From NCBI GenBank assembly GCA_964472655.1, contig CAYYLQ010000004.1:1912-65911 (forward strand): a stretch of 64,000 nucleotides of DNA, written 5' to 3'. Both the position numbers and the translations under genes were made by a program. Below are positions 3,351-51,165 of this stretch, piece after piece. The DNA is from an uncultured Nitrospirales bacterium. GTDB taxonomy: Bacteria; Nitrospirota; Nitrospiria; Nitrospirales; NS-4. Below the pieces are notes generated by a model, which made no database searches, had not been told where the DNA came from, and saw only the letters and a list, made by a program, of their open reading frames with translations. The first letter of the stretch is position 1; every line of letters starts with the position of its first letter.

Positions 3351-3368
3351 GCGGGGCAGGCCCCCCGC
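3351..3368. terminator. GC-rich hairpin between convergent rarA and the ABC-F gene
   Basis: GCGGGG-cagg-CCCCCCGC lies immediately after the rarA TGA and before the ABC-F stop. No clear U-tract. Confidence 0.4.
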
Positions 3369-3369
3369 C

Positions 3370-5235: not shown

Positions 5236-5274
5236 GGCGATTGATTCAGGGTAACGGTTGCTGGAAGTGCGGCG

Positions 5275-6054: not shown

Positions 6055-6158
6055 GATTTTGAAAACTGTTCTCAATATACCGGAGCAGCAGCGGCTCTGT
6101 CAAGGCCGGTCTCCCGGCGAGAGGGCGATGCCTTGGAATCAGTGGGTTGGGTTGGGTT

Positions 6159-6234
6159 TGGTGGAGCTGGCGGGGATTGAACCCGCGACCTTCAGACTGC
6201 CAGTCTGACGCGCTCCCAACTGCGCTACAGCCCC
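6159..6234 (-). tRNA. tRNA-Ala (anticodon GGC)
   Basis: Reverse complement reads GGGGCTGTAGCGCAG...CTGGCAG loop...GGTTCAATCCCCGCCAGCTCCACCA. G3:U70 pair present, CCA encoded. Confidence 0.9.
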
Positions 6235-6245
6235 ACTCGGCAGGC

Positions 6246-6275
6246 ATCTTAACATTCACTTTTTCTTCGAGTCAA
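6246..6275 (-). promoter_or_regulatory. sigma70-like promoter of tRNA-Ala
   Basis: Minus strand reads TTGACT-N18-TAAGAT. The -10 ends 11 nt before the mature tRNA 5' end. Other tRNA genes here share this geometry. Confidence 0.4.
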
Positions 6276-6305
6276 CTAAGCCTGACGCGTGACAGAGGTT
6301 GTTTG

Positions 6306-6334
6306 TTGACAATAGCCGGAGAGGTGCCTAGACT
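6306..6334 (+). promoter_or_regulatory. candidate promoter of purA
   Basis: TTGACA-N17-TAGACT, about 70 nt upstream of the purA ATG. Confidence 0.3.
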
Positions 6335-6401
6335 TGAACGCCATGGGAGCTCTGGACCATTCGGGACAGGGCTCTTTTCGTGTCGGGAGGATGCAGGAGC
6401 G

Positions 6402-7745: not shown

Positions 7746-7821
7746 GAGCCGGTAGCTCAGTCGGTAGAGCATCGCCCTTTTAAGGCGAGGGCCGTGGGTT
7801 CGAGTCCCACCCGGCTCACCA
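7746..7821 (+). tRNA. tRNA-Lys (anticodon UUU)
   Basis: GAGCCGGTAGCTCAGTCGGTAGAGC..., anticodon loop CTTTTAA, GGGTTCGAGTCCCAC T-arm, CCA encoded. Confidence 0.9.
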
Positions 7822-9565
7822 CAAATCCCTCCACACTTTCCGACCTCACCCCACCCCTGTATCTTTTTCGATTCACCTCACATCACCTTCAATTTTCTCC
7901 TGCATGACTTTACGGAGGAGGAGTGGTAGGATTCGAGGACGGAATGAAGAGTGTTGATAAGGGGAGCTAGTTATCAAGTGAGAAAGTGAGGGTAAGTGTT
8001 ATGCCCTACTCGAGATTTGGACAGGTAGTATAGGTCGTGTATGCTCGCAGACGATGATTTTCCTGTTATTTTTCTCGGAGTAGCCGACTACATTCCGCCC
8101 AATCAGGGACCACATCCCTACAACCCTATCGACATATTCCAGCTCTCAAAATTTAAAAGACATCTTATTTTCCCCGTTTCTTTCAAAGGTACATACTGGC
8201 TGTTCCTCTTAAGCGAAAAGTTGTTAGACGCTTCGCCAATGCCATCAATGAAAGTGCGTATTCGCAATAACAAAGGGGAAGAATTGTTAAAAATCGAAAT
8301 GAAGTTAGCTTCAAGATTCGGACCCGCTGAACAAATTTCATCAGATCCTTCTACCGGCCCTCAGCCTTCGCCTGTTAGTTCGCCCAGTTCTTTGGCATCG
8401 ACTCCGGCTTCGTCACAGAGCCAACAGGATACTAGAGTGATAGCACTTCAACCAAATGAAATGATTGCTCCTAAAGGGGTTGGTTGGATCTTAGTCACAG
8501 TCCCTTTTCATGATGATGCAGTAATGATCGAGCCCGGAAAACTTACCATTGAGGTGGAGTTAAACGAAAAATCAGGCACGATTGGGGAAATGCATTATCT
8601 TTATCACAAGGTGCCCCCCTTCACGCCAGAGACTATTAAAGCAATAGAATCTAACCTTACGTCTGTTAGAGCAGTAATAGCACAAATCGGCTGCAAGCAT
8701 TGCACAAGTTTACTTAAAACCTATGCTGCACTACAGAAAGACTCTGACTTGGAAAGAGACGGCCATATTTGGTATTCCGATCTTCCCGAAACACCTTTCA
8801 TTTGCCAGTGCGGAAAATCGAAGCAGCCGCTTCAATACCTAAAGGAGAACTTACATGCCCTTCTCGGGCGAGATAAGCCAGCTTCCAAGCAGGGACATCT
8901 TGATTACGTTAGGCGGTATGCTCACACCGAAGTAATAAAAGTAGTGCAGAGATTTAACGAATTGCTAGACAAACACAAAGACGAAGGAACATTTCAGAAA
9001 TTCATTGAAGAGAACCCGCTCATGTTAGCAATGTTTCACTCGAAAGCGCTTTTTGTTAAACCTAACATACTTGGAAAATTTCAGCCAGATTTCGCCGTAT
9101 TTGATACAAGCAACAGGCTCATATTTATTGAACTAGAAAGGCCCAGCATGAACCTCTTCAAGAAGGATGGTCATCCAACCGCTGACTTATGGCATGCCTA
9201 TGGTCAAGTCGAAGACTGGCTACATGAGTATGAAAAACACCCTGCAGCAGTATTGGAGGCGCTAAAGTTGACTCAAGAAAAAGTAATGGCGGTAAACGGA
9301 GCTGTGATTGCTGGCAGAAGCAGGGGTCAAAACCCAGCACATATCAAACGCCATATGTCCAATCCTGCATACGCCCGCATCCAATTTTTAACACTAGATG
9401 ACCTTTCATCCGCCTTACAGCAGATATCCAAGCAACTAGCTTAAGGATAAAGGCCGACAGAAATCGGTAAGATGCGTTGGTTACATTTGGGTATTGCGAA
9501 GAAGTAGACGCTGGTCCCAGTTATCCCCAACGCCGTAGCCTAATACTCTATCAATTGAGCTACCA
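7822..9565. mobile_element. A+T-rich genomic islet abutting the 3' end of tRNA-Lys (no integrase, no att repeat found)
   Basis: Abrupt visible drop in G+C starts at the tRNA end and recovers at about 9560. Contains a single large ORF (8041..9444). Confidence 0.4.
8041..9444 (+). CDS. DUF4263/Shedu (SduA)-like PD-(D/E)xK nuclease-domain protein with a novel N-terminal region
   Basis: 467 aa. The C-terminal ~170 aa reads ENPLMLAMF..GKFQPDFAVFD..RLIFIELERP..LWHAYGQVEDWLHEY..AVIAGRS..IQFLTLDDL, which matches my recollection of DUF4263. The middle has CKHC..(33 aa)..CQC. Residues ~100-130 form a Ser/Pro-rich linker. No obvious RBS at 8041, so the start is uncertain. Confidence 0.6.
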   Translation: MLADDDFPVIFLGVADYIPPNQGPHPYNPIDIFQLSKFKRHLIFPVSFKGTYWLFLLSEKLLDASPMPSMKVRIRNNKGEELLKIEMKLASRFGPAEQISSDPSTGPQPSPVSSPSSLASTPASSQSQQDTRVIALQPNEMIAPKGVGWILVTVPFHDDAVMIEPGKLTIEVELNEKSGTIGEMHYLYHKVPPFTPETIKAIESNLTSVRAVIAQIGCKHCTSLLKTYAALQKDSDLERDGHIWYSDLPETPFICQCGKSKQPLQYLKENLHALLGRDKPASKQGHLDYVRRYAHTEVIKVVQRFNELLDKHKDEGTFQKFIEENPLMLAMFHSKALFVKPNILGKFQPDFAVFDTSNRLIFIELERPSMNLFKKDGHPTADLWHAYGQVEDWLHEYEKHPAAVLEALKLTQEKVMAVNGAVIAGRSRGQNPAHIKRHMSNPAYARIQFLTLDDLSSALQQISKQLA

Positions 9566-9877
9566 ATGATCGCCACGATTACCTATTGCCTTTCTGAAGA
9601 AGCGAGAGACTGCGAGGTGAAGGCGGGCGGGTCGGGCGCGTACCATCGGAATGTCTCCGGGCCGATTGCGCCGGCGGACGAGCGGTTGTTCCAGGTAACT
9701 GACGACGGCTCTGTGTCGGCGATGTTCACGGTGATGGAGTTCGACGCGCCGCAATCCTTCGAGACGCTGCTCGCGCATCTTCGCGCCCGCCGCCACCGCC
9801 TCTCGGCGATCCGGTTCGCGCTCGAAGCCGGGACCACGGCGGCCGACCTTCGCAAAACCACGCCCCTTGACATTTAG
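9566..9877 (+). CDS. hypothetical protein (coding status uncertain)
   Basis: 103-aa ATG ORF with no recognisable motif. Two antisense ORFs of similar length overlap it, as expected in high-G+C DNA. Confidence 0.3.
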   Translation: MIATITYCLSEEARDCEVKAGGSGAYHRNVSGPIAPADERLFQVTDDGSVSAMFTVMEFDAPQSFETLLAHLRARRHRLSAIRFALEAGTTAADLRKTTPLDI

Positions 9878-9902
9878 GAATTGAATCGTAATCATACAGC
9901 CC

Positions 9903-10220
9903 ATGCGCATGAAACTGACAGAGTTGCTCCGGGTGTCAATCCTTGTAGCGGCGTGGCTCGTCTTCGGAGGAGCGTACGTCGTTGACGCCCTCGATGCATC
10001 CTACGAAATGAACGCGGCCGGATCAGACCTTGAGCAGGCCCTCGAACCTGAAGACAAGGTCGGACTCCACGTGCTTGGCGTTTCCCACGCGGGCGCCGTC
10101 GAAACGATGGCGTTCTGCCGGTGTCGCGACGTTGACACGAATGCTCAGCCTCACCCCTGGCTGTTCCGCGAACTTCCCGCCTGCCCTCTTTATCAGCGTC
10201 TTTCCAGCTACCGGATCTGA
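9903..10220 (+). CDS. hypothetical membrane-anchored or secreted small protein
   Basis: 105 aa. N-terminal hydrophobic helix VSILVAAWLVFGGAYVV. Cys- and His-containing C-terminal part. Upstream of the RND pump. Confidence 0.4.
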   Translation: MRMKLTELLRVSILVAAWLVFGGAYVVDALDASYEMNAAGSDLEQALEPEDKVGLHVLGVSHAGAVETMAFCRCRDVDTNAQPHPWLFRELPACPLYQRLSSYRI

Positions 10221-10325
10221 TCCCCTTCCCAGACGCCTCTGAGACGGAGAACCTCGGCTCTCCGCTGGCCCTGTTGTGCGCTGAAGGGATTACCGCTTCC
10301 TGTCTCCAGGAGGAAGGGGGGAAGG

Positions 10326-13300
10326 ATGTTGACCGTCATAGTAAAAGCCGCGCTCTCGCACCGAAAGATTGTGCTCGCATTGGCCGTCGGATTGTTGATC
10401 GGAGGCCTCTACGCGTTTCATGTCCTCGATATCATTGCCTATCCCGATCCCGCGCCTCCGATGATCGAGGTGATCACCCAGAATCCGGGCTGGTCTGCCG
10501 AGGAAATTGAACGGCAGATCACGATCCCGCTGGAGACCACCCTGAATGGCATGCCGGGTCTCACCACCCTCCGCTCGATCTCGTTGTTCGGGCTCAGTGA
10601 TATCAAAGCCTACTTCGATTTTGACACTGATTATTTCAAAGATCGGCAAGAAGTGCTCAACCGGTTGCAACTCGTCACACTGCCGAACAACCTCCAGCCC
10701 CAGATTTCTCCCTGGTCGGCGATCGGCGAGATCTACCGCTACCAGCTGGTCGGCGAGGCCTACTCCCTCACGCAACTGAAAGAGGCGCAAGATTGGATCG
10801 TGCGGCGACAGTTTAAGCAGGTGCCCGGCATCCTCGACGTGGTCGGATTCGGAGGGACGACCAAAGAGTACCACGTCGAGATCGATCCCCGGGCCCTTCT
10901 CAATTATGGCGTCACGCTCCCCCAAGTCATGACCGCCCTCGGCAACAGCAACATCAACGTCGGGGGCAGTTTCATCCCGATAGGGGAACAGAACACCAAT
11001 ATTCGCGGGCTCGGTCTCTTCCGCACCGTGGAGGACATTGCGCGGGTGGTTGTCGCGGAGAGAAACGGCGTACCGATTTATGTCTCCAATCTGGCGCGAG
11101 TTGGCATCGGCCATGCGATTCGACTTGGGAAGGTGGCGCATGACCGGGAGGATGACATCGTCGAGGGCATTGTCCTGATGCATCGAGGCGCCAGAGCCCT
11201 CACGACCCTGGAGGGTGTCCGGGCGAAGGTGGGAGAATTGAATACGCGTTTGTTGCCGGCGGGGATGAAATTGCAATCCATCTATGACCGGTCGAAATTG
11301 ATCAATCTGACTACCACGACCGTGCTGCACATCCTCGTCCTCGGCATCGTTCTCGTCTGCGCCATTCTGTTTGTCTTCCTGGGCGACATCGCAACCGCCT
11401 TGATCGTCGCCGTGTCCATCCCCCTCTCGTTGCTGGCGACGTTTTCCGTTATGGCCGGGCGTGGGGAGTCGGCGAACCTCATTTCGATGGGCGCCATTGA
11501 TTTCGGTATTATCGTGGACGCCTCCGTGGTCATGGCTGAAAACATTTTCCGCCACCTCACCGCCACACATTTCCGACGACAAGGCGCCACGTCAGTCATT
11601 ATTCACGCCGCCGAGGAGGTCACCGGGCCGATCTTCTTCTCCACCGTCGTCATCCTGATCGCCTTTCTGCCCCTCTTCACCATGTACGGCGTCCCGGGGC
11701 GCATTTTCGCGCCGATGTCGCATACCTATGGGTACGCCATGGCCAGCGCGCTGCTTCTTTCCGTCACGCTCACCCCGGTGCTGTGCCGGTGGTTCCTTCC
11801 AGACAGAACGCATCGAGAGGAAACCACCGTTGTCCATGCCATCAAGACGCGGTACCTCTGGATCTTGGACCGTGTCTTGCATCATCGTGGAGTGGTGGTC
11901 GCCTGCGCCGGAGGGCTGTTGCTCGCGACGTTGTTCGCGTCCAGATTGCTCGGCGGAGAATTCATGCCCAAGCTGGAAGAAGGGAACATTTGGCTCCGCG
12001 CCTCCATGCCCCTGGATATCAACTTTGAGACTGCCAGTGAAATCGAGCGCACGATCCGAACCATCTTACGACAGGTGCCCGAAGTCACGTCTGTCACCTC
12101 ACAGTTGGGACGCCCGGACGACGGGACCGATGTCACCGGCTTCTTCAATGGTGAGTTTCTGGTCGAGATCAAACCTCGAAGCGAGTGGCGTAGCGGGATC
12201 TCCTCCAAGGAACAACTGGTGCAGGACGTGGAACGGAGGCTCGCGGTCCTCCCCGGGATCGTGTTCAACTTCTCCCAAGCCATTCAAGACAATGTCGAAG
12301 AGGCCATGGCCGGAGTCAAGGGAGAGAATGCCATCAAGATTTTTGGCGATGATCTGCCGGCCTTGGAAGTGAAAGCCGAGGAGGTGGTCAAGATCATGAA
12401 GACCATTCACGGTATTCGCGATCTCGGGTACATCGATGAATTCGGCCAGCAAGACCTTGTCGTTGAAATCGATCGGGAGGCCACCGCGCGCTACGGCATT
12501 CAGGTGGGCGACGTCGCCGCGATGATTCAAGCCGCACTCGGCGGCCAGGCTGTGACGCAACTCCTGGATCGGGACAGGCGCTTCGATGTCACCGTCCGTC
12601 TCCTGCCGGAGTACCGCGAGCAGTCTGATCAGATTGAGGAACTACAAATCGCTTCTCCCGACGGGGGGCGGATTCCGTTGAAACAACTGGCGACAATCAA
12701 GCGCCAGTCCGGGGCCTCGTTGATCTTCCGGGAAGGCAACAACCGCTATTCTGCGGTGAAGTTCAGCGTGCGCGACCGCGACCTTGAGAGCACGATCAAT
12801 GAAGCTGAAGCGAAGCTTGCCTCTGGCACGGAGTGGCCCAAGGGATATCACTATGAGTGGCACGGAGAAATTCGGCAACTCCGGGAGGAACAGCGACGAT
12901 TGCTGGTCATTGTGCCGGTGAGCCTCCTGCTCATCTTTTTTGTCCTCTATAACGCGCTCTCCTCGGTCAAGGATGCGTTGCTGATCCTTGGGGCGGTTCC
13001 GTTTGCCCTGGTCGGAGGGGTGCTGGCGCTGTTCGTTACCGGCACGCATTTCAGCATCTCCGCCGCCGTTGGCTTTCTCTCGGTCTTTGGCGTGTCTATT
13101 CTCGACAGCACGATCCTGATCACTTATATCCGGCAACTCCGTCTGGAAGGCCTCGGGCTGGAGGAGGCGGTCAGGCAGGGCGCTGAAATGCGGATGCGCC
13201 CTGTCTTGATGACTGGTCTGGCTGCGGCGATCGGGCTGCTGCCAGCCGCGATCGGCGGCGGAATCGGATCGGAAACGCAGCGTCCCCTGGCCAGGGTCGT

Positions 13301-13421
13301 CGTGGGTGGGATGCTGACGGCGTCGACGCTGATCCTGCTCGTTCTCCCAGCCATGTACAGCTTGGTCACAAAAAGGGAGGACATTTCTATGGAAACCATG
13401 AACCCGGAGGGTCCAACATAA
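10326..13421 (+). CDS. CusA/CzcA-family heavy-metal efflux RND permease
   Basis: 1031 aa. 12-TM RND architecture with two large periplasmic loops. N-terminus ...AYPDPAPPMIEVITQNPGWSAEEIERQITIPLE is typical of HME-RND. GGAAGGGGGGAAGG RBS. Confidence 0.9.
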   Translation: MLTVIVKAALSHRKIVLALAVGLLIGGLYAFHVLDIIAYPDPAPPMIEVITQNPGWSAEEIERQITIPLETTLNGMPGLTTLRSISLFGLSDIKAYFDFDTDYFKDRQEVLNRLQLVTLPNNLQPQISPWSAIGEIYRYQLVGEAYSLTQLKEAQDWIVRRQFKQVPGILDVVGFGGTTKEYHVEIDPRALLNYGVTLPQVMTALGNSNINVGGSFIPIGEQNTNIRGLGLFRTVEDIARVVVAERNGVPIYVSNLARVGIGHAIRLGKVAHDREDDIVEGIVLMHRGARALTTLEGVRAKVGELNTRLLPAGMKLQSIYDRSKLINLTTTTVLHILVLGIVLVCAILFVFLGDIATALIVAVSIPLSLLATFSVMAGRGESANLISMGAIDFGIIVDASVVMAENIFRHLTATHFRRQGATSVIIHAAEEVTGPIFFSTVVILIAFLPLFTMYGVPGRIFAPMSHTYGYAMASALLLSVTLTPVLCRWFLPDRTHREETTVVHAIKTRYLWILDRVLHHRGVVVACAGGLLLATLFASRLLGGEFMPKLEEGNIWLRASMPLDINFETASEIERTIRTILRQVPEVTSVTSQLGRPDDGTDVTGFFNGEFLVEIKPRSEWRSGISSKEQLVQDVERRLAVLPGIVFNFSQAIQDNVEEAMAGVKGENAIKIFGDDLPALEVKAEEVVKIMKTIHGIRDLGYIDEFGQQDLVVEIDREATARYGIQVGDVAAMIQAALGGQAVTQLLDRDRRFDVTVRLLPEYREQSDQIEELQIASPDGGRIPLKQLATIKRQSGASLIFREGNNRYSAVKFSVRDRDLESTINEAEAKLASGTEWPKGYHYEWHGEIRQLREEQRRLLVIVPVSLLLIFFVLYNALSSVKDALLILGAVPFALVGGVLALFVTGTHFSISAAVGFLSVFGVSILDSTILITYIRQLRLEGLGLEEAVRQGAEMRMRPVLMTGLAAAIGLLPAAIGGGIGSETQRPLARVVVGGMLTASTLILLVLPAMYSLVTKREDISMETMNPEGPT

Positions 13422-13495
13422 AAGTGCCCTCTTGAATTATTTGGATCGGAAGAAACCGACTATCATGGCGATTCTTAAAGCGAAACGGGGAAACC

Positions 13496-13524
13496 TTCAC
13501 AAAATCGAGCGAGTCGTGTAAAGT
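13496..13524 (+). promoter_or_regulatory. sigma70-like promoter (copy 1 of a 33-bp repeat)
   Basis: TTCACA-N17-TAAAGT, about 125 nt upstream of the PagL-like gene. 29/33 identical to 15055..15087. Confidence 0.4.
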
Positions 13525-13650
13525 GCCTGACGCACCGCACATTTTCTTTTTCTGCAAATCCATTCAACCTTCCCTGAAGTCCCCGTGTCTCACGTTCAGG
13601 CGAATTTGCGACCTGCAGCTAAGTTCAAGTCCGGAAGGAAAGGAGTTTGG

Positions 13651-14271
13651 ATGCGACAGCGTTTGATTATCGTTGTGATCGCGGGGCTGTGTGCCATCAT
13701 GCCTGTGCTCGGGGCGCGGGCCGACGCGCAGACCATCCAGGCCCGGGATATCGTCAAGCAAGGCACGATCGAGGCGGGGGCGGTCGTCGGCTTTCTCCAA
13801 GGCCTTGATGTGGGGACTTCAGAGCCCAATCGCAGCGCGACGTATGTGCTTCCAAGAATCGGAAAGGTGGTGACAGGAGACCTGGGGAAAGATCTCTATG
13901 TAGGAAACTTCGAGGTCCTCTTCGAACCTCTCTATGCGCACTATTGGGAGCCTTTTCACGGTGAAGCGGCGGGCGGCTCCGCGCTGTTCAAGTATAACTT
14001 TCTTGCCTTCGGCAGGTGGATGCCGTTCTGGGATCTCGGCCTCGGGATGCTCTGGACGGACCTGGCGCCGCGTATTCCCGAACAGAGCGAGCAATTCAAT
14101 TTTGTGCTCGAAAGCGGCACCGGGACGCAGTACTTCATGACGGAGAGCATCGCGCTGACGATAGGGGCGCGCTTCCACCACATCTCGAACGCGGGCATCG
14201 GCGATCGGAATCTCGGATTGAACTCGGTTTTAGGGTACGTGGGCGTCTCGTTCTTTCTGCCTCGGCAGTGA
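13651..14271 (+). CDS. acyloxyacyl hydrolase / lipid A deacylase (PagL-like) outer-membrane protein
   Basis: ATG preceded by GGAAAGGAG. Signal peptide MRQRLIIVVIAGLCAIMPVLGARADA. FHHISNAG catalytic His/Ser motif. C-terminal beta-barrel-like sequence. Confidence 0.6.
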   Translation: MRQRLIIVVIAGLCAIMPVLGARADAQTIQARDIVKQGTIEAGAVVGFLQGLDVGTSEPNRSATYVLPRIGKVVTGDLGKDLYVGNFEVLFEPLYAHYWEPFHGEAAGGSALFKYNFLAFGRWMPFWDLGLGMLWTDLAPRIPEQSEQFNFVLESGTGTQYFMTESIALTIGARFHHISNAGIGDRNLGLNSVLGYVGVSFFLPRQ

Positions 14272-14292
14272 CCCGCTCCCTCCCTTGATGAC

Positions 14293-14946
14293 TCAGAAGT
14301 GCAGCGCTGCGCCCACGACCACGGCATTGGCCGAATAGTCGCCCCTGATGCCGATCGTCGAAGAGACGGCCTCCCTGAAGTCGAGTTTGGCTCTCGTGTA
14401 CTTGTATTCGGCGAAGAGCGCGACCCAGGAGGGAATGACGAACACGCGGAGGCCCGCCAGGGCGTTGAGGCCGGCCTTGGTGGACGTATCGGTGCCGAAG
14501 ACGTTGCTGGCGCGGGCGAAGAAGATCGCGGGGCCGGCGCCCACATAGGGCTGGAAGATGGGATGCGGAATCCGGACCACGGCATTCACGGCCCACGTCG
14601 TGATGCGCAGATTCGTGTCAGGCTGAGTCGATGTGGCTGTCCCTCCGGGACCACTGGCCGTCACGGCTTGCTGTTTGATATGAGGGGTCGTGCTGAACAC
14701 CTCCGTCTCGATGCCGACGAACGTCAGCGGCCCCGGGAGATAGTAGCCGATCTTGGCGCCATACAGCCCCGCCCCCCTCAAGGACAAATCCGTCAACGTG
14801 CCGGATCCGGCTCCCGTCGCCGTAATGTGGTTCAGGTCGTTCGGGATCGATACCCCGAGGTCTCCCGCGATGTACAATTCAGCCGATGCGGTTCCGGCAA
14901 GGGTGAGCAGCAAGCCCAAGAAGACGGTCACGATACAGAGCTTCAT
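14293..14946 (-). CDS. outer-membrane beta-barrel protein (OmpW/OMP_b-brl-like)
   Basis: ATG preceded by AAGGGAGA. Signal peptide MKLCIVTVFLGLLLTLAGTASA. Alternating beta-strand pattern. C-terminal ...GAALHF. Confidence 0.65.
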   Translation of the reverse strand: MKLCIVTVFLGLLLTLAGTASAELYIAGDLGVSIPNDLNHITATGAGSGTLTDLSLRGAGLYGAKIGYYLPGPLTFVGIETEVFSTTPHIKQQAVTASGPGGTATSTQPDTNLRITTWAVNAVVRIPHPIFQPYVGAGPAIFFARASNVFGTDTSTKAGLNALAGLRVFVIPSWVALFAEYKYTRAKLDFREAVSSTIGIRGDYSANAVVVGAALHF

Positions 14947-15058
14947 GGCGTCTCCCTTCTTTTTCGATGGGGATCTCATCGGCTCCCTCCGTCTTGCACA
15001 CAAGTATAACTCTGAAAAAGCCGCCTGTCCTCTTGTTTGTGCCGCAGACGCGCCAACC

Positions 15059-15087
15059 TTCACAAAATCGCGCCATTAGTGTAAAGT
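15059..15087 (+). promoter_or_regulatory. sigma70-like promoter (copy 2 of the 33-bp repeat)
   Basis: TTCACA-N17-TAAAGT ends 23 nt upstream of the epimerase ATG. Confidence 0.4.
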
Positions 15088-15110
15088 TCTGGCTCTCATT
15101 GGGAGCAGAC

Positions 15111-16124
15111 ATGGACGCGAGCGTGCTTGTGACAGGCGTGGCCGGCTTCATCGGCTACCACGTCGCCCGGCGTCTGCTGGAGCGGGGCGACCGGGTGCTG
15201 GGCCTGGACAACCTGAGCGACTATTACGACGTGCGCCTGAAGAAGGCGCGGCTCGCGCAGCTCGAGCCCTTTGAGCGCTTCCGGTTCCTCAAGCGCGACC
15301 TGGCCAACCGGTCGGCCATGGAGAAAGTGTTCGCCGCGCATCCCATCAGGCGGGTGGTTCACCTCGGAGCCCAGGCGGGCGTCCGCTATTCGCTGGTCAA
15401 CCCCCATGCCTACGCGGACAGCAATCTCACGGGCTTTCTCAACGTCCTGGAGGGCTGCCGGCGCCGGAAGGTCGAGCACCTTGTCTTCGCCTCCTCCAGT
15501 TCCGTCTACGGCGGCAACACCCACATGCCGTTCTCGGTGAACGACAACGTAGACCATCCCCTGTCGCTCTACGCCGCCAGCAAGAAGGCCAACGAGCTGA
15601 TGGCCCATACCTACGCCCACCTCTACGGAATCCCCTGCACGGGACTCCGGTTCTTCACCGTCTACGGGCCCTGGGGCCGGCCCGACATGGCGCTGTTCAT
15701 CTTCACCAAGGCGATCCTGGAAGGGAAACCCATCCAGGTGTTCAATTTCGGCAAAATGCAGCGGGACCTGACGTATATTGATGATATTGTGGAGGGTGTG
15801 GTCCGCGTGCTGGACCGGACGGCCGTGCCCGACCCGGCCTGGTCGGGGGAGCGCCCGAAGCCCGGGAGCAGCAACGCGCCCTATCGCCTGTATAATATCG
15901 GCAACCATCAACCGGTGGAGTTGCTGCGGATCATCGCCGTGCTCGAAGGCGTACTGGGAAAGAAGGCGAAGATGGAGATGAAGCCCATGCAGGCGGGCGA
16001 CGTGCCGGCGACCTATGCGGAGATCGAGGACCTGGCCGCCGACGTCGGCTTCCGCCCCGGCACGCCCATCGAGGTGGGGATCCGGCGGTTCGTCGAGTGG
16101 TACCGGACGTATGCGGGCCGCTGA
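15111..16124 (+). CDS. NAD-dependent nucleotide-sugar epimerase (UDP-glucuronate 4-epimerase-like SDR)
   Basis: [12 protein letters not shown] Rossmann motif, YAASKKANE (YxxxK). 337 aa. Confidence 0.85.
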
Positions 16125-16126
16125 CG

Positions 16127-17182
16127 ATGCGTAAGCGCGCCATCATCACCGGCATCACGGGCCAGGACGGCTCCTACCTGGCCGAACTGCTCCTGGCCAA
16201 GGGCTATGAGGTCCACGGCCTCGTGCGCCGCGCCAGCACCTTCAACACGTCGCGCATCGACCATATCTACGTGGACCCGCACAAGCCCGGCGCGCGGTTC
16301 TTCCTGCATTACGGCGACCTGGGCAGCGCAGGCGAGATCGCCCAGCTGATCCAGCAGGTCAAGCCGGACGAACTCTATCACCTGGCCGCGCAAAGCCATG
16401 TCCGCGTGAGCTTCGACCTGCCGGAACACACCGGCGAGATCACCGGGCTGGGGGCCACGCGGGTCCTGGAGGCCGCGCACCAGTCCAAACTGCCGGTCCG
16501 CCTGTACCAGGCGTCGAGCAGTGAAATGTTCGGCTCGACGCCGCCGCCGCAGAACGAGACGACGCCGTTTCATCCCCGCAGTCCCTACGCGGCTGCCAAG
16601 GTCTATGCCTACTGGATGACGATCAACTACCGGGAGGCGTACGGCCTGTTCGCCAGCAACGGGATCCTGTTCAACCACGAGTCGCCCCGGCGCGGCGAAA
16701 CCTTCGTCAGCCGCAAGGTCACGCGGGGCGTCGCCGCCATCGTCGCCAAGCGGGACGAGAAGCTGTTCCTGGGCAACCTGGACGCCAAGCGGGACTGGGG
16801 CTATGCGCCCGAATACGTGGAGTGCATGTGGCAGATCCTCAACGCCGACCGCCCCGACGACTACGTGATCGGCACGGGCGAGACGCACACCGTGCGCGAA
16901 CTGGTGGAGCAGGCCTTTGCCTACGTGGGTCTGGACTGGAAGCGCCACGTCGAGAAGGATCCCCGCTACCTGCGGCCGACGGAAGTGGACGGGTTACAGG
17001 CGGACGCGACGAAAGCGAAGAAGCAGCTGGGATGGACTCCGCGCGTCCGGTTCGCCGACCTGGTGAAGATCATGGTGGATTGCGACCTGGAACGGATGGG
17101 GTGCCGGCCGATCGGAGAAGGCAAAAAGATTCTCGAAGCCGCCGGGCTCGATTGGACGACCAATCGCATGACGGCCGGCTAA
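16127..17182 (+). CDS. gmd: GDP-mannose 4,6-dehydratase
   Basis: [18 protein letters not shown]-terminus and full-length family resemblance. ATG lies 2 nt after the epimerase stop. Confidence 0.95.
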
Positions 17183-17230: not shown

Positions 17231-17308
17231 GTCCCCATCGTCTAGCCTGGCCTAGGACGCGGCCCTTTCAAGGCCGCAACACGGGTTCAAATCCCGTTGG
17301 GGACACCA
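17231..17308 (+). tRNA. tRNA-Glu (anticodon UUC)
   Basis: GTCCCCATCGTCTAGCCTGGCCTAGGAC..., anticodon loop CTTTCAA, ...GGGTTCAAATCCCGTTGGGGACACCA. Confidence 0.9.
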
Positions 17309-17323
17309 CACATAACGGAGTAG

Positions 17324-17725
17324 CTAACCTAGTGCTAGCAGACGCTTGACGACTCCATGGAGTTCGTGCACATCCACCGGTTTGTGGAACGCTGCGTCCA
17401 CAATGCCGCTGTTGACGGCATCCAACAACATGGGTTGCGTGGTTTCCCCGGAAATCAGAACGATCTTAAGCGGCTTCGAAATATTCAACGTCGGTTTCTT
17501 ATCGGACTGCCCTCGAAGCTCATAGCATAGGGTCAGGCCGTCCCAGTTCGGCATCAGATAATCGGACAACAGAAGGTCCGGTTGCTCGGTTTCGATCAAG
17601 GTCATGGCGTCCATGCCGTCACCGGCTTCTATAATATCCAGCGGGAAGTCCTCCAGCGCATCGCGCAGGAACGCGCGCATCTCAGGTTGGTCGTCTACGA
17701 TTAGGACCTTGGCTCTTTTGCCCAT
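17324..17725 (-). CDS. single-domain response regulator (CheY-like receiver)
   Basis: 133 aa. KVLIVDD...DLLLSDYLMPNWDG...HKP receiver motifs. No output domain. Stop lies 15 nt from the tRNA-Glu end. Confidence 0.85.
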   Translation of the reverse strand: MGKRAKVLIVDDQPEMRAFLRDALEDFPLDIIEAGDGMDAMTLIETEQPDLLLSDYLMPNWDGLTLCYELRGQSDKKPTLNISKPLKIVLISGETTQPMLLDAVNSGIVDAAFHKPVDVHELHGVVKRLLALG

Positions 17726-17727
17726 TC

Positions 17728-20592
17728 CTAATGTCCTCCCTTGTTGGTCATCAGGTCATCCAGTAACGAGTAGAATTGAGTCACGTCGATCGGTTTGGTC
17801 ATGTATCTCTGCGCGCCGGCAGCCAGCAGCTTGTCAACCTGTTTCTGCATGGCATCGGCGCTGAGCATGACGACCGGGATCGTCGCCGTTTCCGGCCGTT
17901 CACGGAGGCGCAACAGGACCTCGTCTCCCTGAATGTCCGGGAGGTTCAGGTCCAGCAGGATCAGGTCGGGCCGGTGCGCGATCGCAAGCTCTACCCCCAG
18001 TTGCCCCTGCATCGCGCCGATCAGTTTGATGCCTGGTCGTTTCTCAACTAGCTCCTCGACGAGACGGTAGTTGGCCTGATTGTCCTCGATGTACAACACG
18101 GTCACGGCTTTACCGGACAGCGGGGCAGAGATCTCGACCTTGCGGGAGGGCACCGACTCGGCACGGCCCGCGGGAGGTCCCGTCAGTGGAAGATCCAGGG
18201 CGAATGAAGTACCCCGGCCCACTTCACTCTCCACGGAGAGCGTGCCGCCCATCGCCATCATCAAGTTTCGACTTAAAACTAATCCCAATCCTGTGCCCTC
18301 AATGCGGGAATCTGCTCCGAGCCGGTCAAACGGAGTGAACAGCCGCGACAACAGGGCGGGTGGAATCCCGCCTCCCGTATCGGTGACGGTGATCCGGTAT
18401 TGCCTCTCAGAAGTCGCCTCACAGGAGACCGTCAAAGTGCCGCCTTCCCGGTTGTATTTGACCCCGTTCGACAAAAGGTTCAGCACCACCTGCTTCAAGC
18501 GCTGCTGCTCGGCCAGTACATAGACGGGTTTCCCCTCTGCGGATGGCGTCACGAGTTGAATGTGCCGCGAGGCCGCCTGAGGGCGGACCAAATCCACCGC
18601 CTCGCCGATGACAGTGGTAGCCAGGACCGGCTCAATGGAGAGTGTCATACGGCCGGCCTCGATGCGGGTGATGTCCAGCACCTCATTGATGAGGGCCAGC
18701 AGGTGCCGCCCTCCTTTAAGGATGTGCTGCACACGCTGTTGCTGTTTGGCGGTCAGGGTCTCCATCTCCAGCATCTGGGCGAACCCCAGCACGGCATTCA
18801 GCGGCGTCCGCAGCTCATGGCTCATCCGCGAGAGAAATTCGCTCTTGGCCTGGTTCGCGCGTTCAGCCGAAAGCTTGGCGAGAGAGGACTCTTGGAGCTG
18901 TTTCCGTTCGGTGATGTCACGGCCGATTTTCGAGATGCCGATGATCTTTCCGGATGCATCCCTGACCGGCGAGGCTGTCACGGAAACGTCCACCAGCGTT
19001 CCGTCCTTGCGCCGCCGGACGGTTTCATAGTTTTCGATCCGTTCGCCTCGTGCGACCCGCGGCAGAATCTCCGCTTCCTCGTTCTCGCGATCGGGAGTTA
19101 AGAGCATATGGTTCGTGTGTCCGATGGCTTCGGCGGCGGTGTAGCCGAACAGCCGCTCGGCCCCTGCATTCCAACTGGTAAATACGCCGTTCAGGTCCAC
19201 GGCGGTGATTGCGTCGTCGGAGGATTCGACGATGCCCGCCAGTCGTGAGAGCGACACCTCCGCCTGCTTGCGCTCGGTGATGTCGAACGCGAATCCGCCT
19301 ACGAACCTTTCTCCCGAAGAATCCCGAACTGGGAATTTGACGATCAAAAAATAGTGGACCCGGCCTTCTGCATCCGGCACGGTTTCCACGGTTTCCAGTG
19401 TTTGCCGCGTGGCCAAAACCTTTTGATCGTTAGCGCGAAGTTCTCGGGCGGCAACTGCAGGCATAAAGTCGGTATCGTGTTTGCCTACTGTCGATTGCTT
19501 GAAGAAGGTTCGGTGGGCCTTATTCGTGTAGGAATATTGTCCTGCTGCATTCTTCATCCAGGCCAATGCGGGACAGTTGTCCATGAAGGCCTGAAACAGT
19601 TCTTCCCTCTCTTTCAGAGCGGTTTCAGCCCGCTTGCGTTCGGCGATGTCGATGCCCATGCCGATCACGCAATGGGTGCCTTTGATCTGTGTTGCAACGC
19701 CGGTGAAGTAATAGGGGGTGCGGGTGCCATCCTTGGCGACGAAGTCTGCTTCAACGTCCGACACACCCTTCTGAAAAACCTCCCCGATTCTTGCTGCCAC
19801 CAACTCCTTGTCCGGACCGGCAAAGAAATCGAGCGGATGCATGCGGGCGATTTCGTCGCCGGTGTAGCCTGTGACCCGTTCGAAATTCTTGTTCCATTTG
19901 AGAAATCGTCCGCTCTCGTCGTATAAATAGACGACGCCCGGCAGGCTCTTGATAAGGGCGTCGGAGAAGGTGCGTTCCTGCCGGACCATTTCCTCTGCCT
20001 GTTTCTGCTGGGAGATGTCGCGCACGAAGGCATTGAAATGCCAGGTGTCGCCGACCCGGGTCGGCCAGACCGTGAGCTCCACGGACAGCTCGCGGCCGCT
20101 CTTGTGCAGGGCGGTCAGCTCGAGGCGCCGGTTGTCGAAGACCTGCTCGCGCCCAGCGGTCGGAAACCGGGCCAGGCCGCGCGCGTGCGCCTCCCGATAT
20201 TGGGGCGGAATGATCGTCTCGGCCAGCAACCGGCCGATGGCTTCCTCGCGGGACCATCCGAACGTCGCCTCCGCCTGACGGTTCCAATCGAGGATCACGC
20301 CCTTGGCGTCGATGGTGATGAAGGCATCGTGGGCCGTGTCGAGGATGGTGCGCATATGTTGCTCGCTGGCCTTCAACTCTGCTGTCCGGCCCTCGATGCG
20401 CTGCTCCAATTCGTCCTGGACCGGCGCCTTTCGCGCACGTCTCGGCTGTGATCGTTTGCGGTTTGTCGTCACGGAGCGTTTTCGTGGTGCGGTTTTGGCC
20501 ATACGGGACTGACGATAAGCCAGCGCCTCCTCTTTGTCAAAGGGTGGGCTGCGGCGAATTTTCCCTTTGAAAGCAATCACCGCGTCTGTCAA
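17728..20592 (-). CDS. hybrid sensor histidine kinase (about 4 PAS domains, HisKA, HATPase_c, C-terminal receiver)
   Basis: Repeated PAS-like blocks. H-box SHELRTPLN. G-boxes. Receiver LILLDLNLPDIQG...KP. The ORF-track start is TTG 20592; ATG at 20502 (MAKTAPRK) is an alternative. Confidence 0.85.
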   Translation of the reverse strand: MTDAVIAFKGKIRRSPPFDKEEALAYRQSRMAKTAPRKRSVTTNRKRSQPRRARKAPVQDELEQRIEGRTAELKASEQHMRTILDTAHDAFITIDAKGVILDWNRQAEATFGWSREEAIGRLLAETIIPPQYREAHARGLARFPTAGREQVFDNRRLELTALHKSGRELSVELTVWPTRVGDTWHFNAFVRDISQQKQAEEMVRQERTFSDALIKSLPGVVYLYDESGRFLKWNKNFERVTGYTGDEIARMHPLDFFAGPDKELVAARIGEVFQKGVSDVEADFVAKDGTRTPYYFTGVATQIKGTHCVIGMGIDIAERKRAETALKEREELFQAFMDNCPALAWMKNAAGQYSYTNKAHRTFFKQSTVGKHDTDFMPAVAARELRANDQKVLATRQTLETVETVPDAEGRVHYFLIVKFPVRDSSGERFVGGFAFDITERKQAEVSLSRLAGIVESSDDAITAVDLNGVFTSWNAGAERLFGYTAAEAIGHTNHMLLTPDRENEEAEILPRVARGERIENYETVRRRKDGTLVDVSVTASPVRDASGKIIGISKIGRDITERKQLQESSLAKLSAERANQAKSEFLSRMSHELRTPLNAVLGFAQMLEMETLTAKQQQRVQHILKGGRHLLALINEVLDITRIEAGRMTLSIEPVLATTVIGEAVDLVRPQAASRHIQLVTPSAEGKPVYVLAEQQRLKQVVLNLLSNGVKYNREGGTLTVSCEATSERQYRITVTDTGGGIPPALLSRLFTPFDRLGADSRIEGTGLGLVLSRNLMMAMGGTLSVESEVGRGTSFALDLPLTGPPAGRAESVPSRKVEISAPLSGKAVTVLYIEDNQANYRLVEELVEKRPGIKLIGAMQGQLGVELAIAHRPDLILLDLNLPDIQGDEVLLRLRERPETATIPVVMLSADAMQKQVDKLLAAGAQRYMTKPIDVTQFYSLLDDLMTNKGGH

Positions 20593-20593
20593 T

Positions 20594-20610
20594 ATCCCGT
20601 TGGGGACACC
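20594..20610 (+). repeat. direct repeat of the tRNA-Glu(UUC) 3' end (att-like, copy A)
   Basis: ATCCCGTTGGGGACACC is identical to 17291..17307. Confidence 0.7.
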
Positions 20611-20714
20611 CCCTTTGGAGCCATATGGCTTGCTATTAGGCAGCCTGATCGATTAGTTTCTTTAAGGATTCTATCTGTCTCAACCAGGCGATAACGTGGT
20701 TCCAATCCGAACTG

Positions 20715-20732
20715 GTTTGGGACACCATACAT
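20715..20732 (+). repeat. degenerate direct repeat of the tRNA-Glu(UUC) 3' end plus flank (att-like, copy B)
   Basis: GTTTGGGACACCATACAT versus tRNA GTTGGGGACACCACACAT (17296..17313), 16/18 identical. Preceded by TCCAATCCG, which resembles the T-loop TTCAAATCCCG. Confidence 0.55.
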
Positions 20733-20761: not shown

Positions 20762-22048
20762 ATGGACACGAAGCGCCACATAGCGGTCGTGGGTCTCGGC
20801 TACGTGGGCCTGCCGGTCGCGGCGGCCTTCGGCAAGCTCGGGCCGGTCATCGGCTTTGACGTCAACAAGGCCAAGATCGAGGACCTGCGCCGCGGAGAAG
20901 ACCGGACCGGCGAGGTCTCGAAGGAAGACCTCCGGAACGCACAGATCACCTTCACCGACGATCCCTCGTCGCTCAAAACCGCCGACTTCATCATCGTGGC
21001 GGTCCCGACTCCGATCGATGCCGCCCTGCAGCCGGACCTGACCGCGCTGATGCGCGCGTCCGAGCTCGTCGGCACCCACCTGAAGGTCGGGACGATCGTC
21101 GTCTATGAATCGACGGTCTATCCGGGCGCGACCGAAGAGGTCTGCGGGCCCATCCTGGAGCGCTGTTCCGGCCTGCGCTGCGGGAAGGATTTCAAGCTGG
21201 GCTATTCCCCCGAGCGGATCAACCCCGGCGACAAGGAACATAACTTGGAGAAGATCGTGAAGGTCGTCGCGGGGATGGATGCGGACACGCTCGAGGCGGT
21301 GGCGCAGACCTATGCCCAGGTCGTGAAGGCCGGCGTGCATCGGGCCCCCAGCATCAAGGTGGCCGAGGCGGCCAAGGTGATCGAGAACACGCAACGGGAC
21401 TTGAACGTCGCCCTGATGAACGAGCTGGCCATCATCTTCCATCGGCTGGGCATCAACACCAATGCCGTGCTGGAGGCCGCCGGGACCAAGTGGAACTTTC
21501 TGCGCTTCACGCCGGGGCTGGTCGGCGGCCATTGCATCGGCGTGGACCCCTATTACCTGACCACGAAGGCCGAATCGGTGGGGTATCACCCGCAGGTCAT
21601 CCTGGCGGGGCGGCGGATCAATAACGGCATGGGCGTCTATGTGGCGGAGCAGACCGTCAAGTCCCTGAGCCGGACCGGCAAGTCCGCCGCCGGCGCACGG
21701 GTCGCCGTCCTAGGCCTGACCTTCAAGGAAGACGTGCCGGACGCGCGGAACAGCCGGGTGCCCGACATCGTCACGGAGTTGCGGCAGTACGGCGTGGAGG
21801 TGGTCGTCCACGATCCGCTGGTGCAATCCGCCGAGGCCGAACATGAGTACGGGATCAGCCTGGCCGCCTGGGACTCCCTGAAGGATTTCGACGGGATCGT
21901 GCTCGCCGTCCCGCATCGCGCCTACCGGGAGATGGGGCAGGCCGCCCTGCTGCGCCTCCTGAAGGGCGGCGGCGGCGTCGTGATGGATGTGAAGGGCCTG
22001 CTCGATCCCCGGTCGTTGCCGCCGGCCGTCTCATACTGGCGCCTCTGA
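20762..22048 (+). CDS. nucleotide-sugar dehydrogenase (UDP-glucose/GDP-mannose dehydrogenase family, TviB/WbpO-like)
   Basis: VVGLGYVGLPVA Rossmann motif, catalytic GGHCIGVDP. 428 aa from the internal ATG. Confidence 0.9.
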   Translation: MDTKRHIAVVGLGYVGLPVAAAFGKLGPVIGFDVNKAKIEDLRRGEDRTGEVSKEDLRNAQITFTDDPSSLKTADFIIVAVPTPIDAALQPDLTALMRASELVGTHLKVGTIVVYESTVYPGATEEVCGPILERCSGLRCGKDFKLGYSPERINPGDKEHNLEKIVKVVAGMDADTLEAVAQTYAQVVKAGVHRAPSIKVAEAAKVIENTQRDLNVALMNELAIIFHRLGINTNAVLEAAGTKWNFLRFTPGLVGGHCIGVDPYYLTTKAESVGYHPQVILAGRRINNGMGVYVAEQTVKSLSRTGKSAAGARVAVLGLTFKEDVPDARNSRVPDIVTELRQYGVEVVVHDPLVQSAEAEHEYGISLAAWDSLKDFDGIVLAVPHRAYREMGQAALLRLLKGGGGVVMDVKGLLDPRSLPPAVSYWRL

Positions 22049-22093: not shown

Positions 22094-23776
22094 ATGAGCG
22101 TCAACGACAAGCAGGTCATCTTCTCGCTGATCGGGGTGGGGCGGGTCCATCCGCCCAAGAAGCAGGTGCTGAAGGACATCTATCTCTCGTTCTACTACGG
22201 GGCCAAGATCGGCGTCCTCGGCCTGAACGGATCGGGCAAGAGCACGCTGCTGCGCATCATCGGCGGCGTGGACAAGGACTATCTCGGCGAGATCACGATG
22301 TCGAAGGGCTACTCGGTCGGGCTCTTGGAGCAGGAGCCGCAGCTCGACAAGAAGAAGACGGTCCGGGAGATCGTTGAAGAGGGACGGAAGGACGTCGTCG
22401 CCGTCCTGAAGGAGTACGAGACCGTCAGCGCCAGGCTGGGCGAGAATCTCGCGTCGGACGAGATGGAGAAGCTGATCGACAAGCAGGCGCAGCTGCAGGA
22501 GAAGATCGAGGCGGTCAACGGCTGGGAGCTCGAGAACCAGCTCGACGTGGCGATGGACGCCCTGCGGTGCCCGCCGCCGGACGCGAAGATCGAGGTGCTC
22601 TCGGGCGGCGAGAAGCGGCGCGTGGCCCTGTGCCGGCTGCTGATCCAGGAGCCCGACATCCTCCTGCTGGACGAGCCGACCAACCATCTGGACGCGGAAT
22701 CGGTCCAGTGGCTGGAGCAGCATCTCCAGCAGTATAAGGGCACGGTCATCGCCGTGACCCACGACCGCTACTTCCTCGACAACGTGGCGCGCTGGATCCT
22801 GGAACTGGACCGGGGGCAGGGCATCCCGTTCGAGGGCAACTATACCTCGTGGCTGGAACAGAAGCAGGCACGCCTGGCCAAGGAGGAGAAGTCCGAATCC
22901 CAGCGCCGGAAGACGCTGGAGCGCGAGCTGGAATGGATCCGCATGTCGCCCAAGGGCCGGCACGCCAAGGGCCGGGCCCGCATCGCACGCTATGAAGACC
23001 TGCTCGGCGACGAGCAGGAGAAACGCGCAGAGGATTTGGAAATCTACATCCCGCCGGGGCCGCGGCTAGGCGACATCGTCGTGGACGCCAAGGACCTCGT
23101 CAAGGCATATGGCGACAAGGTGCTCTTCGAGGGTCTCGGCTTCAGCCTGCCGCGCGGCGGCATCGTCGGGGTGATCGGGCCCAACGGCGCGGGGAAGACG
23201 ACGCTGTTCCGGATGATCATCGGGAAAGAGAAGCCGGACAAGGGGTCCATCAAGGTGGGCGAAACGGTCACGATCGGCTACGTCGACCAAGACCGCACGC
23301 TCGACGACAAGAAGACGGTCTGGGAGGTCCTCTCGGACGGGCAGGACAAGATCAAGTTGGGGAAGATCGAGGTCAACTCGCGGGCCTATTGCGGGCGGTT
23401 CAACTTCGGCGGCACGGAGCAGCAGAAGAAGGTCAAGGACCTCTCGGGCGGGGAACGCAACAGGCTGCATCTCGCGCGCATGCTCCGGGAGGGGGCGAAC
23501 CTTGTCCTGCTGGACGAGCCGACCAACGATCTCGACGTGAACACGCTGCGGGCGCTGGAGGAGGGGCTTGAACGGTTCGGCGGCTGCTGCATGGTGAGCA
23601 GCCACGACCGGTGGTTCCTCGACCGGATCGCGACGCACATCCTGGCGTTCGAAGGGGACAGCCAGGTGGTCTGGTTCGAGGGGAACTACAGCGAGTACGA
23701 GGCGGACCGGAAGAAACGGTTAGGGAAAGAGGCGGAGCGTCCGCACCGCATCCGCTACAAGAAGCTCACGCGGTAG
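22094..23776 (+). CDS. ettA: energy-dependent translational throttle protein EttA (ABC-F)
   Basis: 560 aa. N-terminus ...[47 protein letters not shown] and a second cassette GPNGAGKTT. EttA-like length and arm. Confidence 0.9.
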
Positions 23777-23942: not shown

Positions 23943-24031
23943 GCCGGGGTGGCGGAATTGGCAGACGCCCGGGACTTAAAATCCCGTGGCCCGAAAGGGC
24001 CGTGCGGGTTCGATCCCCGCCCCCGGTACCA
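23943..24031 (+). tRNA. tRNA-Leu (anticodon UAA)
   Basis: GCCGGGGTGGCGGAATTGGCAGAC..., anticodon loop CTTAAAA, long variable arm, GGGTTCGATCCCCGC T-arm, CCA encoded. 89 nt. Confidence 0.9.
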
Positions 24032-51019: not shown

Positions 51020-51097
51020 GGTCCCATCGTCTAGCCTGGCCTAGGACGGTGCCCTCTCAAGGCATAAACACGGGTTCAAATCCCGTTGGGACCACCA
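51020..51097 (+). tRNA. tRNA-Glu (anticodon CUC)
   Basis: GGTCCCATCGTCTAGCCTGGCCTAGGAC..., loop CTCTCAA, ...GGGTTCAAATCCCGTTGGGACCACCA. Confidence 0.9.
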
Positions 51098-51165
51098 CTC
51101 CGAGCTAGCTGGACCGGCAGTTCGATCAAACCTGCAGGATATTCAATACCGAACCAAATGAGCCC

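Follow-up and report, generated by a model that had tools for sequence, protein, structure and literature searches.

A 64,000-nt stretch of the genome of an uncultured Nitrospirales bacterium (hereafter the window; contig CAYYLQ010000004.1, positions 1,912 to 65,911, with coordinates counted from its first nucleotide) carries a two-component gene pair between a tRNA-Glu(UUC) gene and a ugd-like gene. The intact tRNA-Glu(UUC) gene lies on the plus strand at 17231..17308 (ARAGORN; Rfam tRNA, 59 bits). It follows gmd, the conserved left-flank gene for GDP-mannose 4,6-dehydratase (16127..17182, plus strand; Pfam PF16363, E 1e-132). The conserved right-flank gene (20762..22048, plus strand; Pfam PF03721, PF00984 and PF03720) encodes a ugd-like nucleotide-sugar dehydrogenase, for which the JGI name is UDP-N-acetyl-D-galactosamine dehydrogenase. 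Both genes of the pair are on the minus strand, namely a stand-alone receiver of 133 aa, referred to here as the response regulator (RR; 17324..17725; PF00072, E 8e-20; GC 0.545), and a hybrid histidine kinase with four PAS domains, HisKA, HATPase_c and a receiver (17728..20502; Pfam; start uncertain). Two fragments of the tRNA 3′ end, copy A (20589..20610, plus strand) and copy B (20694..20732, plus strand), lie between the kinase and ugd and are separated by an A+T-rich stub (20611..20693). The inserted DNA from the tRNA end to copy A, 3.28 kb without a recombinase gene, is called islet 1 (17309..20588). We consider it likely that the tRNA-Glu 3′ end was the target of site-specific integration twice in succession, and that later deletions spared nothing but the cargo genes and the attachment (att) sites. 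In this account the intact tRNA is the integration target and the left boundary (attL), copy A is a displaced tRNA 3′-end fragment that forms the right boundary of islet 1, and the stub would be the remnant of an older integrated element.

The RR gene ends with its stop codon at 17324, 15 nt away from the tRNA. A first-pass annotation, made from the letters and predicted open reading frames of the window, had described a CheY-like regulator in this position next to a 4-PAS hybrid kinase, and both the coordinates and Pfam agreed with it. It had also described the two genes as filling the gap almost edge to edge. That part holds for the maximal open reading frame (ORF) of the kinase, which begins at a TTG at 20592, and does not hold for the likelier starts, since the preferred ATG at 20502 or the database call at 20355 (875 aa) leaves 86-233 nt of non-coding DNA before copy A. 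A sigma-70-like promoter match (TTGACA, 17 nt spacer, TATCGT; 20512..20540, minus strand; 10/12 in a consensus scan, a pattern match alone) reads from 20540 to 20512 upstream of the ATG at 20502 and thus sits inside islet 1. In the cassette proteins Pfam found no domains other than those of receivers and kinases, and no integrase, and there were no phage structural, lysis or replication genes at 17309-20732. Insertion by a transposon or insertion sequence was rejected, as there was no transposase (Pfam) and there were no terminal inverted repeats.

The repeated 3′ end of tRNA-Glu(UUC)

The last 17 nt of the tRNA-Glu gene, ATCCCGTTGGGGACACC (17291-17307), occur a second time, without a mismatch, at 20594-20610. 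When up to three mismatches were allowed, this 17-mer gave three matches in the window against 0.24 expected, and none of 100 shuffles reached three; the third match was the other tRNA-Glu gene, at 51080. Gapped alignment with one inserted base extended copy A (TCAATATCCCGTTGGGGACACC) to 20589-20610, where it matches tRNA positions 57-77 at 21/22, and the gapped score of 37 was attained by none of 200 shuffled queries. Copy B is more degenerate and reaches past the CCA into the downstream flank of the tRNA. Its right part, GTTTGGGACACCATACAT (20715-20732), matches 17296-17313 at 16/18, and 20715-20732 was the sole other match to the 18-mer GTTGGGGACACCACACAT in the 64 kb with up to three mismatches, where 0.01 was expected. 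Pattern search and gapped alignment together placed copy B at 20694-20732, corresponding to tRNA positions 51-78 plus 5 nt of flank, with three substitutions and three short indels. The T-loop-like TCCAATCCG, which had been noticed ahead of the second copy in the first-pass annotation, falls within this gapped alignment. Both recurrences that the annotation had listed, the exact one and the degenerate one, were thus reproduced, and the pattern searches and shuffles exclude chance. The part of the tRNA locus that is repeated downstream comprises the T-arm, the acceptor 3′ strand, the CCA and 5 nt of flank (17281..17313, plus strand; local alignments and pattern searches). The repeats correspond to 17-33 nt of the tRNA 3′ end, which is unlike a short target-site duplication. 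The DNA between copies A and B is A+T-rich, as had also been noted, with a GC of 0.45-0.46 (0.446 for the stub) compared to 0.617 for the window.

Among the seven tRNA genes in the window, tRNA-Glu(UUC) alone has fragments of itself downstream, and a repeat search found no downstream repeats of the other six. The second tRNA-Glu gene (CUC; 51020-51097) has the T-arm and most of the acceptor 3′ strand in common with the UUC gene, with 15/17 identity in the core, and has no downstream repeats. A 238-aa minus-strand ORF that overlaps it (51076-51789; GC3 0.525) appears to be non-coding.

Copies A and B could also be taken for decayed tandem tRNA-Glu genes, or for chance or regulatory repeats, considering that tandem tRNA genes are common and that copy B includes T-arm-like sequence. 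However, both are 3′ fragments without any 5′ half, chance is excluded by the searches above, and an Rfam scan found no family at copy A or B, with the tRNA as its sole match. In addition, relatives with an empty site have a single tRNA without repeats, and the same type of fragment bounds unrelated inserts and a prophage in other relatives (see below). This explanation is effectively refuted, and the copies are better read as the traces of site-specific integration.

Empty and occupied sites in relatives

The relatives comprised contigs encoding Ugd relatives together with JGI metagenome contigs that contain the exact 78-nt tRNA (n=69). Ugd homologues at 87-88% identity bear the names of Nitrospirae or Nitrospiraceae MAGs, which puts the window in Nitrospirota. 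Approximately 37 relatives of Ugd were found at 83-93% identity, and the identical 78-nt tRNA-Glu was found in 69 metagenome contigs. The first-pass annotation had proposed looking for gmd, tRNA-Glu and the dehydrogenase gene without the cassette, and the order epimerase-gmd-tRNA-Glu-ugd was indeed found without it in L086/L087/L088/L154, L096 and L134. The order epimerase-tRNA-Glu-ugd was found in L097, L106 and L132. In six of the empty-site Nitrospirota metagenome contigs Ugd is 86-90% identical to that of the window, and another relative (L090, Ugd 83%) has an empty junction in a different upstream context, with the tRNA 45 nt ahead of ugd. The tRNA-ugd spacers in the empty sites were 13-46 nt long. 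Alignment of the empty-site relatives showed no extra copies of the tRNA end, and the cassette genes were absent from them. The annotation had considered that relatives lacking any mobile history might carry the same repeats and genes; relatives without signs of insertion have neither. In the window, the cassette splits a set of nucleotide-sugar genes, as the annotation had stated, with the epimerase gene (14967-16124, plus strand) and gmd on one side and the UDP-sugar dehydrogenase gene on the other. An upstream gmd also accompanies tRNA-Glu in L082, L086, L096 and L134. A search of genome contigs with Gmd gave, among the matches listed, at most 72% identity in many phyla, and these matches held no synteny information.

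The 69 contigs with the identical tRNA fell into 38 downstream flank classes compared to 18 upstream, so it is the 3′ side that varies, which is what integration at the 3′ end would produce. Most of the occupants of the gap between tRNA-Glu and ugd are bounded by repeats. The closest relative (L082, Ugd 93%) has a 2.2 kb insert with a metallophosphoesterase gene and small ORFs, bounded by a perfect 19-nt repeat, CGTTGGGGACACCATACAT, that extends to 32/38. In L084/L111 (Ugd 85%) a 0.8 kb insert holds a truncated PIN toxin gene and is bounded by a 19/20 repeat of the last 10 nt of the tRNA plus flank, and in L099 (Ugd 88%) 1.24 kb is bounded by a tRNA 3′-end fragment at ~19/22-23 with one inserted base. 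A different RR together with a GAF kinase occupies 3.1 kb in L140/L141 (Ugd 90%), where the insert is not bounded by a tRNA 3′ fragment because the right-hand, ugd-proximal repeat is eroded. Further repeat-bounded inserts lie downstream of the identical tRNA in L108, L116 and L156. When the cassette, the spacer between A and B and the region upstream of the kinase were compared by blastn with all fetched loci, just 13-nt matches at chance level appeared.

Some observations on these occupants are given here in their own right. The regulator and GAF kinase of the L140 pair (native coordinates 9249-11207, minus strand) are 27% and 33% identical, respectively, to those of the window, and kinase or regulator genes also lie just downstream of the identical tRNA-Glu in L135, L144 and L156. 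The sequence ATGGCTTGCTATT, common to the window and L140/L141, was dismissed at an E value of 0.7, and a possible internal third copy in L082 (4110-4128; score 24) was below the chance threshold and was not counted. A contig end inside the tRNA in L081 was not taken as a strain polymorphism, as k-mer assembly of a tRNA common to community members is the simpler explanation. In L123 ugd is missing and an ABC-F gene starts 25 nt after the identical tRNA-Glu. L118 likewise lacks ugd, with an ABC-F gene 808 nt after the identical tRNA-Glu and an integrase fragment between the two.

Identity blocks begin at tRNA positions 26 to 69, differing among contigs, and these varied starts suggest that several different elements use tRNA-Glu. 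Williams is reported to have grouped integration sublocations into classes in 2002.

Prophages were found at this tRNA. In L089, genes for phage baseplate, tail and lysozyme run up to a tRNA fragment, its last 52 nt, that immediately precedes ugd, whereas the site in L090 is unoccupied even though the two Ugd proteins are identical. The first-pass annotation had suggested searching for tyrosine integrases next to the same att core, and such a gene abuts the intact tRNA in the provirus L095 (IMG/VR) and the metagenome contig L130, where it encodes 389 aa (PF00589, E 2.5e-13). L105 has a full-length homologue, and C-terminal integrase fragments alone adjoin the tRNA in L118, L143, L151, L158 and L164, which is decay in progress. 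In L094 a large serine recombinase gene and a terminase gene adjoin a tRNA-Glu with an identical 3′ end. In this group of Nitrospirota, the tRNA-Glu(UUC) gene just upstream of ugd serves as a target (attB) for site-specific integration.

The prophage recombinase ORFs of L095 (6655-7824), L130 and L094 (78-1835) end within the tRNA-Glu gene, and the reverse complement of the tRNA 3′ half codes for the final 17-19 residues of the tyrosine integrase. A 19-aa tblastn match to integrase at 17255-17311 in the window is therefore spurious. At the prophage attachment sites (L089, 9870-9905; L095/L130, just 3′ of the tRNA), a motif of ~25 nt, TTTTCAATGACTTGNGNGATTTATC, lies on both sides of the tRNA-derived core, and a similar sequence, CTTTTTCATGACTTGCC, lies downstream of the tRNA in L084; these motifs may be arm-type sites of the integrase or a sign of related elements.

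A ready-made islet with its att sites might have come from a related strain by homologous recombination in the conserved flanks, and in favor of this route, Gmd is 87-96% and Ugd 83-93% identical among relatives, the tRNA is identical, the islets have no recombinases, and many different occupants lie between the same flanks. This would explain the route of entry only, as the repeats still require site-specific integration somewhere, and no donor with the same cassette was found. We regard this route as plausible but unlikely for the window, where it would leave the nature of the structure unchanged, and favor integration at the tRNA itself.

Origin of the kinase and regulator genes

The two cargo genes differ in how widely their relatives are distributed. 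The best non-self match of the kinase among 5.8 billion proteins was 63% identical (P0122), followed by matches at 46% or less, and this closest relative, P0122/P0243, lies on a contig of 2994 nt. Many relatives of the RR were found at 81-85% identity. In L165, L168 and L170 they form the last gene of a conserved operon, RR159-RR159-REC/GGDEF/EAL-HK822-RR137 (5316-10414 in L165), that adjoins tRNA-Glu in none of the three. HK822 is an 822-aa hybrid kinase with the domain order REC-PAS-GAF-HisKA-HATPase-REC. The RR of the cassette is 84% identical to the terminal regulator of the operon, and the C-terminal 407 aa of the kinase are 73% identical to HK822 of L165, compared to 46% for the N-terminal PAS region; the kinase in the window is without the N-terminal receiver and the GAF domain of HK822. 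The housekeeping proteins PurA, ABC-F and MgsA of L165 are only 67-70% identical to those of the window, so that the RR-kinase pair is more similar than these. The operon end in L165 is convergent with purA, and the MgsA-ABCF-purA synteny is common to L165 and the window (2115-7703).

Judged from these comparisons, the cargo looks to be a copy of the kinase and regulator genes that end a Nitrospirota operon, remodelled in that the sensor half of the kinase was swapped for an array of PAS domains. The origin of the cargo was probably within the phylum, in the genome of another member of the Nitrospirota. The kinase is accessory, with few close relatives compared to the approximately 37 for Ugd at 83-93%. 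Its domains predict an ordinary phosphorelay in which sensing by the PAS domains would lead to autophosphorylation by HisKA/HATPase, and the phosphoryl group would then pass to the receiver within the kinase and to the separate, stand-alone receiver.

The operon also bears on the question of whether the RR and kinase genes are ancestral at this site, with the relatives having lost the pair by precise excision or by recombination between direct repeats. The homologous pair in the more distant L165 is convergent with purA within the MgsA-ABCF-purA synteny, and no scar would be expected after precise excision. However, the pair would have to have been lost precisely in each of at least six distinct lineages with empty sites, the L165 pair closes a five-gene operon and has no tRNA beside it, and the kinase is almost without close relatives. 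The repeats of att type still bound the cassette, which would make it an excisable island either way. An ancestral pair therefore seems very improbable, and acquisition by integration is the reading followed below.

A bolder extension is that in Nitrospirota the tRNA-Glu(UUC) 3′ end docks a pool of very small integrase-less, att-bounded cassettes, with two-component pairs, secreted proteins and a phosphoesterase among their cargoes, that integrases of prophages at this tRNA would still mobilize in trans or in cis. The cassette of the window, a captured kinase-regulator pair remodelled with a new array of PAS sensors, would then shuttle between genomes. We consider it unlikely that the locus works in this way.

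History of the locus and relation to known islands

The position and state of the two copies suggest an order for the two integrations. Copy B marks the pre-insertion position of the tRNA. Its pseudo-CCA ends 34 nt before the ATG of ugd, compared to 13-46 nt for the end of the intact tRNA in empty sites, and the right-hand repeats of L082, L084 and L099 occupy the same ugd-proximal position. Copy B thus carries the tRNA end that was displaced by the first integration. Homology between the window and L082 starts exactly at copy B on the ugd side; on the tRNA side it stops 5 nt beyond the tRNA 3′ end, with the flank (C/T)ACAT. No homology was found to the left of copy B when the A-B spacer was compared with the right end of the L082 insert, which indicates that the older element in the window was not the element of L082 and L099. 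Only the part of copy B to the right of the crossover is the tRNA's own 3′ end, and its degenerate T-arm probably came from the attP of the element; this T-arm differs from those of L082 and L099, again pointing to a different first element. Copy A is nearer to the tRNA and better preserved than copy B, and we infer that it stems from a later, second integration.

In the history that we propose, a first element would have entered the tRNA 3′ end, supplied a new end and pushed the original one, now copy B, to its place beside ugd. This element would then have decayed to a stub of ~85-105 bp (20611-20693). A second element would have entered the regenerated tRNA and displaced the previous 3′ end as copy A, and would later have been reduced to the RR and PAS kinase genes with the promoter-like site (17309-20588), with its recombinase gene gone. 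The outcome would be two remnants in tandem, each bounded by att sites and without an integrase, and equivalent to cis-mobilizable elements (CIMEs). The catalyst of either step would have been a tyrosine or large serine recombinase, a choice taken from the relatives because the window has no recombinase. A tblastn search of the 64-kb window with the integrases of L082 and L095 and the serine recombinase of L094 found none. The first-pass annotation had spoken of one or two integrations with the integrase since lost: the repeats, the empty sites and the occupants in relatives all support the integrations, and the window holds neither an integrase nor a remnant of one, while the loss itself, presumably by deletion, is an extrapolation from this state. 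In the window 3.4 kb of oppositely oriented genes lie between ugd and the tRNA, so the ugd promoter presumably now lies in the stub or in the flank of copy B, and transcription of ugd may have come to depend on the stub. Scans for promoters and terminators gave no clear promoter for ugd and not a single terminator.

Several points weigh against two integrations followed by decay. There is no recombinase gene or fragment in the cassette or elsewhere in the window, and we found no element that combines this exact cassette with an integrase. As the RR stop codon is so close to the tRNA, the loss of an adjacent integrase gene needed a tidy deletion. The cargo also does not look obviously foreign, given the identities of the RR (84%) and of the C-terminal half of the kinase (73%) to a phylum-wide operon. 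Finally, the compositional deviation of the cassette is mild. A comparison with the flanks, which the first-pass annotation had recommended, did reveal a shift, but a modest one: the GC of the cassette is 0.590 compared to 0.617 for the window and 0.63-0.66 for the flanking genes, and the GC3 of the kinase gene is 0.727 compared to 0.84-0.92 for neighbouring genes, which is inside the overall spread of the genes in the window. Such a mild shift fits an origin of the cargo within the phylum.

Two further sites in the window touch on other tRNA genes. Downstream of ugd, an ABC-F ATPase gene (22094-23776, plus strand) is followed by a tRNA-Leu gene at 23943-24031 with no integrase gene. In L082 a tyrosine integrase gene (8744-9744; PF00589) lies immediately after the same tRNA-Leu(UAA), downstream of the ABC-F gene, and tRNA-Leu is thus probably another integration site. 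On the other side, a low-GC gene (8041-9444; GC 0.439, GC3 0.421) starts 220 nt after tRNA-Lys (7746-7821) and is annotated in the L081 gene table as SduA_C, a Shedu defence nuclease. In L086 the epimerase gene comes directly after tRNA-Lys, so that ~7 kb of the window (7746-15000) form a second variable block, which holds the Shedu gene, two small ORFs, and genes for AcrB, PagL and an outer-membrane beta-barrel protein. A repeat search found no repeat of the tRNA-Lys 3′ end within 12 kb.

The locus resembles three described systems. In Islander (PMC4383910), an island in a tRNA gene is delimited on one side by the regenerated gene and on the other by its displaced fragment. Like such islands, islet 1 has a 3′ tRNA target with the intact gene at one end and the displaced fragment at the other, breaks a synteny that is kept in empty-site relatives, and lies at a site that different elements reuse. 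In contrast to them it has no integrase gene, and at 3.3 kb it is very small, with a two-component pair as its sole cargo. The definition of CIMEs and their tandem accretion are described in PMC5704250, which cites as examples the ICESt1/ICESt3-related elements of Streptococcus thermophilus (Pavlovic 2004, Bellanger 2011). Like CIMEs, islet 1 keeps attL and attR (17 nt exact, or 21/22) and has no integration or transfer genes, and it stands in tandem with another remnant with an internal att copy between the two, which fits the three-step scheme of decay and accretion. Unlike CIMEs, it shows no sign of a conjugative origin, and the elements at this tRNA in relatives are prophages, and the older remnant is only ~85-105 bp long. 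The tandem of copy A, stub and copy B is consistent with accretion and is no proof of mobility. In Dehalococcoides, tandem islands at ssrA are bounded by ~20-bp direct repeats, and 15 are without integration modules (McMurdie 2011, PMC3146451), which makes them a close parallel known from environmental genomes. The similarities extend to the tandem arrangement downstream of a small RNA gene, the direct repeats of its 3′ end, the frequent absence of the integration module, the strain-variable content and the occurrence in environmental or metagenomic genomes. The Dehalococcoides system differs in its tmRNA target, its serine recombinase (DsiB) and its reductive dehalogenase cargo, compared to a tRNA-Glu target, two units and a signalling cargo here.

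The islet is therefore a new example of a textbook class, a decayed remnant island at a much-used integration hot spot. It reveals no new mechanism, as targeting of tRNA 3′ ends, decay to integrase-less remnants and tandem accretion are already well described. At this hot spot, one identical tRNA occurs with 38 different contexts downstream, and metagenomes show its attB, attL and attR states directly and with unusual clarity. For the organism, the finding means that the nucleotide-sugar genes at this locus were originally contiguous and that the two-component pair between them is a strain-specific acquisition, which is useful for reading the signalling and cell-envelope genes of these uncultured Nitrospirota.

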